Assembly (NCBI GenBank): GCA_964631565.1
Contig: CAZVYJ010000009.1
Span: 4,862 to 68,861 of the forward strand
Source: an uncultured Planctomycetaceae bacterium
GTDB lineage: Bacteria > Planctomycetota > Phycisphaerae > SM23-33
Reading direction: 5' to 3'
DNA length: 64,000 nt
Position numbers and translations under genes: made by a program. Every line of letters begins with the position of its first letter. Position 1 is the first letter of the stretch. Below are positions 60,330-64,000 of this stretch, one piece after another. The notes beneath the pieces were generated by a model. It had not been told where the DNA came from. It saw nothing but the letters and a program-made list of their open reading frames with translations, and made no database searches.

Positions 60330-60368
60330 CTGCGCATTTGCGCAGCGTCAATTGCGAAATAGCGCAAT
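60330..60368. promoter_or_regulatory. Two adjacent perfect palindromes upstream of cheY; candidate operator
   Basis: CTGCGCA-ttt-GCGCAG at 60330-60345. ATTGCG-aaatag-CGCAAT at 60351-60368. They lie about 70 bp upstream of the cheY start. Confidence 0.4.
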
Positions 60369-60437
60369 TACGGACCCATCACCGATTTCCGATGACTGTT
60401 GCAGCGACTATACCCAAGAACCAGGAGAACCAGAAAA

Positions 60438-60881
60438 ATGAACATTCACGCGATGGTGGTAGATGACTCAGCGATCATGAGAAAAATGGTCATGAAGTCC
60501 CTCAAGGAAACTGAGTTGGCCGACTTCATCTTTACCGAGGCCGGCGACGGCGTGGAAGCCCTTCAAAAACTCGACCCCAAGTCAGTAGGCATTATGTTCG
60601 TCGACTGGAATATGCCGAATATGACAGGCATAGAACTTGTCCGGGCCGTTCGTTCAACTCACAAGAAGTACCCGATACCGATCGTCATGATTACAACCGA
60701 AGGCACCATGGAGCGGGTTGAGGAAGCTCTCGATAACGCCGGCGCCAACGGTTATGTGGTCAAACCCTTCACGCCGGAAATACTCAAGAAAAAGCTGGCG
60801 CCGCTTTTTGAACAGATCGGCAACGACAAGGGTAAATCAAAAGGATTCTTTGGGAAGCTGGCTACGAAGCTGGCTTCATAA
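60438..60881 (+). CDS. cheY: CheY-like single-domain response regulator with a ~25-aa basic C-terminal extension
   Basis: ATG 60438 with AGGAGAA upstream. Receiver residues are VVDDS, D in FVDWNMPNMTG, T in MITTEG, K in VVKPF. The tail is FEQIGNDKGKSKGFFGKLATKLAS. Confidence 0.85.
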   Translation: MNIHAMVVDDSAIMRKMVMKSLKETELADFIFTEAGDGVEALQKLDPKSVGIMFVDWNMPNMTGIELVRAVRSTHKKYPIPIVMITTEGTMERVEEALDNAGANGYVVKPFTPEILKKKLAPLFEQIGNDKGKSKGFFGKLATKLAS

Positions 60882-60935
60882 AACGGGAACCGAAGAACAT
60901 TCACTATTTCTCTGGAGAGACCTAATGACACCGAC
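60803..60935 (+). repeat. Direct repeat copy 1: the 3' end of cheY (its tail), the spacer, and the first codons of cheX1
   Basis: About 70% nucleotide identity to 61441-61577, including the non-coding spacer (...TCTCTGGAGAGAC.TAATGA.ACCGACC...). Confidence 0.75.
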
Positions 60936-61521
60936 CACCATTCAGCAGGGACCTGCAGTAGAGCATAAGGAATGTCTTGGACTGGCCGTAAAGAAAATTT
61001 TTCGGACGGCTTGCGGGGCGGAGCTTAAAACGCTTAAAAGCACCCCTGATACCGACGGCAGCGTCATTGTTGGAATGATATCGCTGTCCGGCGACCTGAA
61101 CTGGTCGATATTCATAGGTCTTTCAAGCGAAACCGCCTCGTCACTGATCTCAAAATTCTTCGGGTTCGAAATTCCCTTCGACAGCGATGACATGTGCGAC
61201 GCCGCAGGCGAACTGGCAAGTATTCTCGCCGGGGAAATAAAAACCCAGCTCAGCCGCCGCGGAATAAAAGTCAACCTTTCGCTGCCGAGCGCCATACGCG
61301 CAAAAAATGTTTATATCCCCAGACAAAACGAGTCGGACACCTTCAGGCTCAGCCTCGGAACGTCCGGCGGCAATCTCTGGGCTGGCATCACGACGCGAAG
61401 TATCGGCATTGTCAAAACCCTCGCGTCCAAAACAGTCAAGCCCCCTTTTGAACAAATAAACGGCGACAACGGCGAATCAGAAGAAACTTTCGTAAAGCAG
61501 GCCGCAAAGCTGGCCTCATAG
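60925..61521 (+). CDS. cheX: CheX-family chemotaxis phosphatase, paralogue 1, with a C-terminal tail homologous to the CheY tail
   Basis: The CheC/CheX/FliY-like core has EIPFDSDDM...GELASILAGEIK...GNLWAGITT. The tail is PPFEQINGDNGESEETFVKQAAKLAS. Confidence 0.7.
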   Translation: MTPTTIQQGPAVEHKECLGLAVKKIFRTACGAELKTLKSTPDTDGSVIVGMISLSGDLNWSIFIGLSSETASSLISKFFGFEIPFDSDDMCDAAGELASILAGEIKTQLSRRGIKVNLSLPSAIRAKNVYIPRQNESDTFRLSLGTSGGNLWAGITTRSIGIVKTLASKTVKPPFEQINGDNGESEETFVKQAAKLAS

Positions 61522-61577
61522 AACAGGAACTTAAAGCGAACACGGAGATTCTCTGGAGAGACATAAATGAGACCGAC
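61441..61577 (+). repeat. Direct repeat copy 2: the 3' end of cheX1 (its tail), the spacer, and the first codons of cheX2
   Basis: See copy 1. Confidence 0.75.
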
Positions 61578-62064
61578 CGACACAAAGCAGAATCATCTGG
61601 CAGAGCACCAGGAATGCCTTGGGCTGGCCGCCAAAGAAATTTTCCATGCAACATGCGGTGTGGAGCTTCAGCCGCTCGAAGACGCGACACCAACTGACGG
61701 AGGCGTCATCATTGCCCTTATTTCGCTGGTGGGAGACGTTGACTGGTCAATATTCCTGGGCCTGCCGCGGAGCACTGCTTCTCCGCTGACAGCCAAATTC
61801 TGCGGGTTCGAAATTCCCTTCGACAGCGATGACATGGGCGATGCCGTCGGCGAACTGACGAACATCCTCGCCGGTGAAGTCAAGGCCAGACTCGACAGGC
61901 AGGGAGTCAAGGCGAACATCTCGCTGCCGAGCGTGATACGTGCAGAAAGCATTCACGTACTCAAGCAAAGTTCGGTTGAAACGTTCAAGCTCTGTTTCGG
62001 CACGCCGCAGGGCAACCTCTGGGCGGGCATCACGACGCACAAAAACGGAGCCTTCGCAGCGTAA
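61567..62064 (+). CDS. cheX: CheX-family chemotaxis phosphatase, paralogue 2 (no tail)
   Basis: About 65% identical to paralogue 1 over the core. Same motifs. Confidence 0.7.
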   Translation: MRPTDTKQNHLAEHQECLGLAAKEIFHATCGVELQPLEDATPTDGGVIIALISLVGDVDWSIFLGLPRSTASPLTAKFCGFEIPFDSDDMGDAVGELTNILAGEVKARLDRQGVKANISLPSVIRAESIHVLKQSSVETFKLCFGTPQGNLWAGITTHKNGAFAA

Positions 62065-62108: not shown

Positions 62109-64000
62109 ATGGATTGCAAAAACAAATCATACGACGTTCTCAACGCACTCAGCGCCGAGATTCTTGCCGCAGACCCTGCCGACAAGGACGCCGTCGTCGG
62201 CATAGGCTCGTCTCTGGAAGGTTTTCTTGACAAGGCCGACGGCATGCCGGCTGAGCTTGAAAAACTCTTTTCCGTCGCCCTCGAGCTGCTCCAGTGCGTT
62301 TATGGCGAAAGCCTGCCCGACCCTGCAGCGGCAATGGAAGCGGTCGCAACCGCAGTAAGCGCCGCAGCCGAATTTCTCGCCGACGGCGGCGACAGTCAAT
62401 CGCTGCAGGCCGTCGCGGCAACCATGCAAAAAATGCTCTCGCTCTCCAAAGACGGCGACGCCCCTGCCGCCGCCAGCCAGCCCGACAATCAGCCACAGAA
62501 GCCGCAGGCGACAAACGCCCCGGCACAAAACACAACCTCGGAAACCAATCTGCTTCCGGGCGATACCGACATGGACCTGCTGAGCGAGTTCATAGTCGAA
62601 TGTCTCGATCACATCGCCGCAGCCGAGGCCGCCCTGCTGGAACTCGAAAGCAACCCTGACGACGCCGAGCAGATAAACACTATTTTCCGCGCGTTCCACA
62701 CCATCAAAGGCACGTCGGGCTTCCTCGGCCTGAACCTCGTCCAGAACCTGGCCCACAAGGCCGAAAACCTGCTGGACCGCGCCCGCGACGGCGAAATAAA
62801 AATCCAGGGCGGATACGCCGACCTGGCGCTGAAATCCAGCGACGCCCTGCGGACGATGATATCCGGTCTCGAAGGCGTCAAGCCGGGCGATAAGCTCACG
62901 CCGCCGGCATACTATGACGACCTGATGACCCAGCTTGCCGATCCGGAAGCCGCCGGAATCAGCGATGAAGCCAATGTCGAAGACATGCGGCTGGGCGACA
63001 TCCTCGTCGGCAAGGGTCAGGCAAAGCGATCCCAGGTTGAAGCGGCAGCCAAAAAACAAGGCTCGCAGCGCATAGGCCAGGTGCTCGTCGAAAACAATAT
63101 CGCAACCGCCGGCGAAGTTATCGACGCCGTCCGCACGCAGAAAAAAATATCCGGCCGCCAGACCGGCGAAAACACCATTCGCGTCGGAACCGACCGGCTC
63201 GACAATCTGGTCAACATGGTGGGCGAACTGGTGATAGCCCATTCGATGGTCACGCAGGACCCCGACGTATGCAACAACGCAAGCCCCAGACTCGCCAGAA
63301 ACGTATCGCACGCCGGCAAGATCATTCGGGAACTCCAGGACCTTGCCATGTCGCTGCGCATGGTGCCGCTGAAGGGAACGTTCCAGAAAATGAACCGCCT
63401 TGTCCGCGATCTCGCCCGCAAGGCAGGCAAGAGCGTCCAGTTCATCACGGAAGGCGAAGAAACCGAAATAGACCGGACAATGGTTGAAACGCTCGGCGAC
63501 CCGCTGGTTCACATGATGCGCAACGCCGTGGATCACGGTATCGAAACCGCAGAGGTGCGGAAGGCCAGAGGCAAGAGCGGCACGGGAACAATCACGCTGA
63601 GAGCCTACCACTCCGCCGGCAACGTCGTCATCGAACTGCAGGACGACGGCAAGGGTCTCGATAAAGACAAGATCATCGCCAAGGCCGTCGAACGCGGGCT
63701 GATCGAATCCGCCAAGGACATGACTGAAAGCGAAGTGTTCGCGCTTATCTTCCAGGCGGGCTTCTCGACCGCCGAAAAGGTAACCGACATATCAGGCCGC
63801 GGCGTGGGAATGGATGTGGTGAAACGCGGCATCGAATCGCTGCGAGGAAAAATCGAACTTGCGTCAAAACTCAACAAAGGCACGACCTTCACGGTGCGCC
63901 TGCCGCTGACGATGGCGATTACGGACGCCATGCTCATACGCGTCGGCAGCGAGCGGTACCTGCTGCCGACAATCTCCATCGAGCGCAGCTTCCGTCCGGA
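62109..64000 (+). CDS. cheA: Chemotaxis histidine kinase CheA, 5' portion; the gene continues past the right edge of the window
   Basis: The track does not list it because there is no stop codon in the window. The frame from ATG 62109 gives the Hpt motif FHTIKGTSGFLG, a long P2/linker, the dimerisation region, N-box HMMRNAVDHGIE, G1 DDGKGLD and G2 GRGVGMDVV. The track's 62127..63611 minus ORF is antisense junk. Confidence 0.85.
   Translation, partial: MDCKNKSYDVLNALSAEILAADPADKDAVVGIGSSLEGFLDKADGMPAELEKLFSVALELLQCVYGESLPDPAAAMEAVATAVSAAAEFLADGGDSQSLQAVAATMQKMLSLSKDGDAPAAASQPDNQPQKPQATNAPAQNTTSETNLLPGDTDMDLLSEFIVECLDHIAAAEAALLELESNPDDAEQINTIFRAFHTIKGTSGFLGLNLVQNLAHKAENLLDRARDGEIKIQGGYADLALKSSDALRTMISGLEGVKPGDKLTPPAYYDDLMTQLADPEAAGISDEANVEDMRLGDILVGKGQAKRSQVEAAAKKQGSQRIGQVLVENNIATAGEVIDAVRTQKKISGRQTGENTIRVGTDRLDNLVNMVGELVIAHSMVTQDPDVCNNASPRLARNVSHAGKIIRELQDLAMSLRMVPLKGTFQKMNRLVRDLARKAGKSVQFITEGEETEIDRTMVETLGDPLVHMMRNAVDHGIETAEVRKARGKSGTGTITLRAYHSAGNVVIELQDDGKGLDKDKIIAKAVERGLIESAKDMTESEVFALIFQAGFSTAEKVTDISGRGVGMDVVKRGIESLRGKIELASKLNKGTTFTVRLPLTMAITDAMLIRVGSERYLLPTISIERSFRP

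Follow-up and report, generated by a model that had tools for sequence, protein, structure and literature searches.

The proteins closest to those considered here belong to two well-described groups of the chemotaxis machinery. CheY is usually pictured as a freely diffusing messenger, and the C-terminal peptide of CheZ, the N-terminal peptide of FliM and CheA-P2 all bind it, the peptide being on the partner in each case. The CheC/CheX/FliY phosphatases include CheX of Borrelia burgdorferi (3HZH) and of Thermotoga maritima (1XKO/1SQU) and carry an ExxN catalytic motif; the asparagine of CheX (N99) is inserted into the CheY active site, where it orients the attacking water, and the glutamate pairs with a CheY lysine (PMC3035606). 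A 64,000-nucleotide stretch of DNA from an uncultured Planctomycetaceae bacterium (GenBank assembly GCA_964631565.1, contig CAZVYJ010000009.1), referred to below in its whole length as the window, holds a cluster in which two cheX genes sit between cheY and cheA. The first of these, cheX1, is a chimera in which a CheX core has been joined in frame to sequence copied from the 3' end of the adjacent cheY.

CheX1 has the PF13690 family, the fold and the ExxN glutamate in common with the described phosphatases, but differs from them in having Ser in place of the catalytic Asn and a CheY-derived C-terminal addition of 37 residues; CheX2 is an ordinary member of the group. The window CheY likewise shares the receiver fold, the acidic pocket (D9/D10), D56, T86 and K109 with CheY of the E. 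coli type (PRK10610), and differs in that it alone carries a 17-residue C-terminal extension. PRK10610 is its best-scoring family (103 bits, below the equivalog cut-off of 189), and it is the cheX-cheA context that points to a role in chemotaxis. What is new is an Asn-less chimeric CheX together with a clade-wide CheY tail, within known kinds of CheY and CheX-family protein. The relevant features, all on the forward (+) strand and numbered from the first nucleotide of the window, are as follows.

60438..60881 (+): cheY, 147 residues, single-domain response regulator (PF00072 at 2.4e-24, 86 bits).
60828..60878 (+): C-terminal extension of CheY, residues 131-147, DKGKSKGFFGKLATKLAS, predicted to form a basic flexible linker and a short amphipathic helix; its GFF lies at 60843-60851, within cheY.
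60882..60924 (+): spacer 1, 43 nt; AACGGGAAC adjoins the cheY stop codon, and TTCTCTGGAGAGAC, which holds the Shine-Dalgarno GGAG, precedes the cheX1 start.
60800..60936 (+): repeat copy A, comprising the last 27 cheY codons, the stop codon, spacer 1 and the first 4 cheX1 codons.
60925..61521 (+): cheX1, whole gene, 198 residues (PF13690).
60925..61407 (+): cheX1 core, codons 1-161, with the CheX fold (PF13690 at 6.3e-13).
61219-61221 (+): Ser99 (AGT) of CheX1, at the catalytic Asn position of ExxN; Glu96 lies at 61210-61212.
61408..61437 (+): eroded junction zone, cheX1 codons 162-171 (IVKTLASKTVK), without detectable similarity to cheX2 or cheY.
61438..61521 (+): CheY-derived end of cheX1, codons 172-198 and stop, KPPFEQINGDNGESEETFVKQAAKLAS, in gapless alignment with cheY codons 121-147.
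61522..61566 (+): spacer 2, 45 nt, AACAGGAAC ... TTCTCTGGAGAGAC, duplicated from spacer 1 together with its ribosome-binding site.
61440..61578 (+): repeat copy B, comprising the end of cheX1, the stop codon, spacer 2 and the first 4 cheX2 codons.
61567..62064 (+): cheX2, intact CheX, 165 residues (PF13690 at 1.4e-13).
61861-63 (+): Asn99 of CheX2, in an intact ExxN.
62109..64000 (+): cheA, with its 3' part beyond the window end; Hpt, dimerisation and HATPase_c domains, and an extra N-terminal domain of ~95 residues.

A preliminary description of the locus had claimed a direct repeat of ~135 bp linking the cheY/cheX1 and cheX1/cheX2 junctions, and this repeat is real. A repeat search returned an ungapped pair of 91 nt (60800-60890 and 61440-61530, 71% identity) and a second pair of 18 nt (60908-60925 and 61549-61566, 94% identity), in the same orientation and in constant register, with a spacing of 640-641 nt, and running through non-coding DNA. 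A gapped local alignment of 60800-60936 against 61440-61578 scored 80, compared with maxima of 28 among 2000 shuffles and 33 among 2938 segments of 191 nt drawn at random from the window. Confinement of the similarity to the coding tail would have told against a duplication; instead, the two spacers alone (43 and 45 nt) align at a score of 29, which was reached by none of 5000 shuffles and none of 19,895 random 45-mers from the window. Both spacers start with AAC(G/A)GGAAC right after a stop codon and end with TTCTCTGGAGAGAC before a start codon. The tail peptides and the 43-nt spacer (60882-60924) quoted in the preliminary description are exactly as it gave them. It had counted 28 codons of CheY tail, of which about 10 (LAPLFEQIGN) encode the normal end of the last receiver helix, so that only the final 17 residues form the extension proper. 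Since α5 spans residues 113-130 in the predicted structure described below, the copied piece includes both the end of this helix (PLFEQIGN) and the whole extension. E. coli CheY ends in ...KLNKIFEKLGM, and its α5 stops at the equivalent of ...LFEQIGN in the window.

In a collection of 5.8 billion proteins, likeness to CheX1 over its full length was found only in P0002 (198 residues, 76% identity), which has the same tail. The gene for P0002 is on a contig of 2.9 kb (L001, from assembly GCA_964403905.1), where cheY (147 residues), cheX1 (198), cheX2 (165) and cheA follow one another in the same order as in the window. The DNA of L001 and the window is 85-91% identical, which marks L001 as a separate lineage. 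A third contig, L002 from a Logan assembly, has an identical cheY followed by an open gene fragment of 88 residues at the position of cheX1, where the contig ends. That the arrangement is an assembly or annotation artefact, e.g., a repeat mis-joined in a metagenome-assembled genome, is vanishingly improbable, because the two copies are only ~70% identical and would therefore neither collapse nor be mis-joined, the independent assembly L001 has the same architecture, and L002 also carries the gene fragment at the cheX1 position.

Nine further independent loci (L003, L004, L007, L008, L009 and L022-L025) have a tailed cheY followed directly by a single, tail-less cheX of 151-168 residues. ExxN is present in the cheX of all eight that could be scored, and in eight of the nine the next gene after cheX is cheA. 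The taxon given for three of the single-cheX records and for two named homologue clusters is Planctomycetaceae, Phycisphaerae or Planctomycetota. Among the best 150 CheX representatives from an exhaustive HMMER search with CheX1, none of the other 149 has a CheY-like tail, although one has an unrelated C-terminal extension ending in KLAKA, and none of these matches covered CheX1 residues 172-198. No further chimera of the CheX1 type was found in genome contigs by a CheX1 search or in metagenome contigs by a CheX1 alignment search; the DNA pattern for FVKQAAKLA gave 11 matches in metagenome contigs, all in unrelated proteins. The chimeric cheX1 and its companion cheX2 were thus found only in the window and in L001. 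A tailed CheX beside a tail-less CheY, which would have contradicted the duplication, was also looked for, and the opposite was seen, i.e., the tail was on CheY only in the nine single-cheX loci. The presence of the tail on CheY but not on CheX in these relatives indicates that it is ancestral on CheY and derived on CheX1.

CheX1 and CheX2 are the closest relatives of each other (56-57% identity), and outgroup sequences reach at most 53% identity to CheX2 and 43% to CheX1. The ~65% core identity claimed previously was too high, the measured values being 57% for protein and 68% for DNA. The C-terminus of CheX2 (...GAFAA) matches that of the outgroup (...GGFVA). CheX1 diverges from CheX2 after codon 161, and from codon 172 it aligns with cheY codons 121-147 without gaps and from stop to stop. 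Along this junction the identity of cheX1 to cheX2 falls from 14/15 (nt 451-465) to 10/15 and 6/15, and then to 3-5/15 from nt 496; no cheY signal was detected in codons 162-171, where all registers from -12 to +12 nt gave at most 26/60. The cores of cheX1 and cheX2 have a nucleotide identity of 0.679, a proportion of synonymous differences (pS) of 0.58, and synonymous (dS) and nonsynonymous (dN) divergences of 1.11 and 0.29. The corresponding values for the tails of cheX1 and cheY are 0.679, 0.54, 0.96 and 0.31, and L001 gives the same picture. Core and tail have therefore diverged equally, which argues for a single event of one age. An alternative history in two steps, in which an older, plain duplication of cheX was followed by recombination or gene conversion that patched the end of cheY and its spacer onto the cheX1-cheX2 junction, keeps some room only because the junction at 61408-61437 is eroded. 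It has very little chance of being correct, given the matching divergence of core and tail (nucleotide identity 0.68 in both; dS 1.11 and 0.96), the constant register spacing of 640-642 nt, and the fact that two tail-less cheX copies occur in none of the nine relatives.

The simplest explanation for these observations, a tandem duplication with in-frame fusion, is well supported by the sequence comparisons. The ancestral order was a cheY with the clade-wide extension, one cheX and cheA, as persists in related Planctomycetota loci. One tandem duplication of ~640 bp then had its left breakpoint in the last cheY helix, at or upstream of codon 121, and its right breakpoint at about cheX codon 161, four codons before the stop. 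Its product is a cheX1 composed of a CheX core, ~10 junction codons that have since eroded, the end of the CheY α5 and the CheY extension; an intact cheX2 and a second cheY-cheX spacer, complete with ribosome-binding site, arose in the same event. The duplication is older than the split between the window and L001. Divergence afterwards was asymmetric: cheX2 kept the ancestral role, and cheX1 evolved about three times faster, yet under purifying selection, exchanging the catalytic Asn for Ser and losing from its borrowed tail the family G-F-F and L determinants and the positive charge. Duplication of a tail-spacer-cheX unit by unequal crossover, with in-frame fusion of the end of CheY, had been proposed in the preliminary description, and a tandem duplication of this kind fits the repeat, the relatives, the equal divergence and the ancestral C-terminus of CheX2; the proposal that the event is old also holds, as the duplication predates the window/L001 split. 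For the explanation as a whole, i.e., a single duplication, asymmetric divergence and a mostly relic tail, a probability of roughly 0.78 is estimated.

In-frame fusions of this neighbourhood are not confined to cheX1. The same CheX subfamily contains natural receiver-CheX fusions (P0149-P0151, P0173 and P0141, ~290-330 residues) and CheX-CheX fusions (P0124-P0126 and P0128, 322-352 residues), which shows that rearrangements of the cheY-cheX neighbourhood repeatedly give in-frame fusions. In these proteins whole domains are joined and every CheX unit has its ExxN, whereas cheX1 received only the last 27 or more cheY codons and has lost the Asn. In a different CheX subgroup (e.g., P0162, P0176, P0193, P0214 and P0230) a recurring C-terminus, R-[RKM]-[PS]-G-[TSA], was noticed ~10 residues past the last strand.

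The fates of the two cheX copies were compared through the ratio of nonsynonymous to synonymous divergence (dN/dS), all values being pairwise between the window and L001. This ratio is 0.034 for cheY, 0.044 for cheX2, 0.42 for cheX1 overall and 0.31 for the cheX1 core (codons 1-161). The value for the core is well below 1, which indicates purifying selection and a gene that is not dead. In relative-rate tests with six outgroups, 19-30 changes were unique to CheX1 and 6-12 to CheX2 (p from 0.0002 to 0.06). The synonymous divergence between the two genomes differs among the genes (0.48 for cheY, 0.32 for cheX1 and 0.80 for cheX2); for the low value of cheX1, possible reasons are codon bias, the small numbers and recombination in the past.

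The active-site helix reads GELASILAG in CheX1, in both the window and L001, and GELTNILAG in CheX2, so that the ExxN catalytic motif is absent from CheX1 and present in CheX2. Asn occupies this position in 66 of 70 aligned family members, in all five aligned Protein Data Bank CheX sequences and in the aligned outgroups. CheX1 is otherwise a recognizable CheX. Its PF13690 score is 49.0 bits (51.1 for CheX2; gathering cut-off 27), the core of its AlphaFold2 model has a predicted local distance difference test score (pLDDT) above 90, and Foldseek places the model close to 3HM4, 1SQU, 6VPW, 1XKO and 3HZH_B (E 5e-11 to 1e-9; template modelling score, normalized to the target, 0.74-0.81). Against the Thermotogales CheX equivalog NF041094 (cut-off 280 bits) the two proteins score 41 and 43 bits, and by this measure CheX1 and CheX2 are distant members of the subfamily and not NF041094 equivalogs. 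CheX1 is thus probably a selected but catalytically impaired (non- or weakly catalytic) CheX paralogue, which may be a binder or sink of phosphorylated CheY (CheY-P) or a heterodimer partner of CheX2. A degenerate half was sought in the CheX-CheX fusions as support for a heterodimer with one active site and none was found, both halves keeping ExxN.

The source of the borrowed tail is itself highly conserved. CheY has thousands of relatives. The tail statistics come from the 120 best homologue clusters, which are 57-72% identical to the window protein, mostly 145 residues long, and all reach the end of the query. The tail motif is present in all 120, with the consensus KK[SP][KG]-GFF[GS][KR]LA-x-K[LFI][AS]-COOH. 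For this clade, the earlier statement that tails of this kind are not normally found on CheY is thus mistaken. Numbered from the first Phe of GFF as position 0, the FF pair is invariant (120/120), and the preceding G is kept in 116 clusters, K/R(+3) in 114, L(+4) in 112 and A(+5) in 110; exactly eight residues follow FF in 103. The named members come from Planctomycetaceae, Phycisphaerae or 'Planctomycetota bacterium' metagenome-assembled genomes. The DNA pattern for GFFGKLAxKLA has five matches in genome contigs, three of which are CheY of Planctomycetota; the other two, in metagenome-assembled genomes labelled 'Proteobacteria', lie inside unrelated open reading frames and are due to chance. 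No relevant description of this motif, or of CheY C-terminal extensions in Planctomycetes, was found in the literature, of which the coverage was incomplete.

An AlphaFold2 model of the window CheY (96 homologues, mean pLDDT 89) has the (βα)5 layout, with α5 at residues 113-130. D9, D10, the phospho-acceptor D56, T86/T87 and K109 are invariant among 96-97 homologues. In the model the extension is a disordered basic linker (pLDDT <50 at residues 132-136) followed by a two-turn helix at 138-145 (pLDDT ~50-55) that is undocked from the receiver domain, and F137, F138, L141 and A142 are on one face of the tail helix. The tail of CheX1 is predicted by AlphaFold2, like that of CheY, to be a flexible linker with a short low-confidence helix.

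The copy on CheX1 has departed from the family motif at several positions: G(-1) is replaced by E, F(0) by T (by L in L001), G(+2) by V and L(+4) by Q. What remains of the motif is F(+1), K(+3), A(+5) and the final AKLAS. Three of the six best-conserved family positions are gone, the hydrophobic face is degraded, and the net charge of the 16-residue tail is -1 in the window and +1 in L001, compared with +4 in CheY. Codons 162-188 of cheX1 have a dN/dS of 1.08, i.e., near neutral. The tail therefore seems to be mostly a relic, in which at most the last decapeptide (FVKQAAKLAS) or its DNA would be constrained.

The earlier view was that CheY and CheX1 share one working docking or localisation peptide, kept by selection on both. 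The tail is indeed in frame and ends at the same stop codon in two genomes separated by a dS of 0.3-0.8, in a gene whose core is under purifying selection, and F, K, A and the KLAS end are common to both tails. The case for a shared functional motif is weak, however, as most of the residues that had been stressed belong to the variable C-terminal part of the motif, and CheX1 has changed at three positions that nearly all of the 120 CheY clusters conserve: G(-1) (116 clusters), F(0) (120) and L(+4) (112). The loss of positive charge and a linker dN/dS of ~1.1 also speak against it, and a shared docking peptide is judged unlikely.

Several points weigh against a relic tail and against the explanation of which it is a part. 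The last 10 cheX1 codons are identical in the window and L001, whereas the preceding 81 nt contain 25 differences (Fisher p = 0.0002, for a partition chosen after the data were seen). This contrast also favours the docking peptide, although four longer identical runs than this one of 33 nt occur in the 2.9-kb comparison, and calling the tail mostly a relic may understate its residual function. The chimera is known from two genomes only, and the estimates of selection on its tail come from one pairwise comparison. Codons 162-171 of cheX1 match neither parent and differ strongly between the window and L001, so that the exact breakpoints are irrecoverable. Ser likewise replaces the catalytic Asn in an unrelated CheX of 165 residues, P0140 (EMSSILAG); CheX proteins with ExxS may thus have arisen more than once, and the change from Asn to Ser in CheX1 may not abolish its activity.

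The identical codons could also reflect constraint on the DNA and not on the peptide. The 3' end of cheX1, together with AACAGGAAC and CTGGAGAGA, would then be part of the translation-initiation or coupling region of cheX2, copied from the equivalent region upstream of cheX1. In the last 10 cheX1 codons there are no synonymous differences (7.7 synonymous sites; about 2-4 expected), pS in the last 15 cheY codons is 0.086 against 0.39 in the cheY core, and the AAC(G/A)GGAAC and CTGGAGAGA blocks do not differ among the four spacer copies of the window and L001. That synonymous changes are absent fits such a constraint and residual peptide function equally well. The numbers of sites are very small, however, and the consensus fold is weak (-7.8 kcal/mol), with most pairs invariant and no real covariation. 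There is no Rfam match, and spacer 2 is only 73% identical overall between the two genomes (95.5% for spacer 1). A nucleotide-level constraint is a distinctly improbable account of the conserved end.

On CheY itself, where the motif is intact, the extension would most likely be a tether able to bind a partner protein or the membrane. The membrane-targeting helices of MinD and FtsA resemble the predicted helix of the CheY tail in their extreme C-terminal site, the preceding Lys-rich residues and hydrophobic residues at i, i+1, i+4 and i+5. The hydrophobic moment (0.53-0.62) and charge (+4) of the CheY tail, a low-pLDDT helix, are similar to those of the MinD and FtsA peptides. The CheY tail differs in being on a diffusible response regulator and in the invariance of FF and its fixed distance to the C-terminus, features that a protein pocket fits at least as well as a membrane. 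By analogy with the docking of CheZ, FliM and CheA-P2, a short peptide on a flexible linker could raise the local concentration of CheY and its partner, with the difference that the peptide is here on CheY itself; the strict synteny of tailed cheY and cheX in nine loci would fit such a pairing. A further parallel is offered by the Cle proteins of Caulobacter, which are reportedly CheY-like proteins with a C-terminal extension that binds cyclic di-GMP (c-di-GMP). They too would be single-domain CheY-like proteins that function through a short C-terminal extension, but the Arg-rich c-di-GMP motif of Cle is absent from the Lys/Phe-based CheY tail.

Candidate partners of the CheY tail are the product of the strictly syntenic cheX and a clade-specific N-terminal domain of CheA. 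In every tailed-cheY operon that was inspected, CheA carries at its N-terminus a conserved helical domain of ~95 residues; a Pro/Gln/Ala-rich linker separates it from the Hpt (P1) domain, which starts at residue 156 in the window CheA.

62109-62400 (+): CheA N-terminal domain, residues 1-95; also at L001 2102-, L003 1685-, L004 7028-, L022 5144-, L024 4995- and L025 5018-.

No Pfam family covers this domain, and the CheY-binding P2 domain was not detected in CheA; the N-terminal domain is a candidate docking site for the CheY tail. A more far-reaching proposal would make KK-x-x-GFF-x-K-L-A-x-K-L-A the address label of an undescribed Planctomycetota CheY clade, by which CheY would be tethered either to the membrane or to some fixed partner such as the clade-specific CheA N-terminal domain or the always-adjacent CheX. 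CheX1 would then be a natural decoy or adaptor, catalytically disabled and with a diverged, inherited label, that modulates the lifetime of CheY-P or the placement of CheX2. Taken jointly, these suppositions make a rather improbable whole.

The locus provides a clean and datable example of a chimeric gene produced by a tandem duplication that starts inside one gene and ends inside the next, with the parental gene order still present in relatives. It also illustrates the usual aftermath, in which one copy is conserved and the other evolves faster, here with loss of a catalytic residue and of most determinants of the borrowed peptide. The parent of that peptide is a C-terminal motif that is strongly conserved across a large CheY clade and seems not to have been described; cheX is always adjacent in this clade, and if the tail tethers CheY, models of signalling from receptor array to motor would change for these bacteria. 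The CheX1/CheX2 pair offers a ready comparison for the contributions of the catalytic Asn and the tail.

The genes upstream of cheY encode an unrelated HisKA_3 kinase, a LuxR-type regulator and a GAF/HD-GYP protein. A scan of the cluster found no terminator-like sites between cheY and cheA and no promoter-like sites on the same strand; a single sigma-70-like match, on the opposite strand inside cheY, is at chance level relative to shuffled sequence. Two antisense open reading frames, of 59 residues (60752-60931, minus strand) and 90 residues (61311-61583, minus strand), lie over repeat copies A and B in paralogous positions. They are explained most simply as by-products of the duplication, and nothing indicates that they are genes. 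Two short palindromes, CTGCGCATTTGCGCAG and AATTGCGaaatagCGCAATT, lie 5' of cheY at 60330-60385. The window copies were spotted by eye, a repeat search reported the pair only in L001 (325-362, 81% complementary), and the first palindrome differs between the two genomes. The palindromes could be an operator of the chemotaxis operon.

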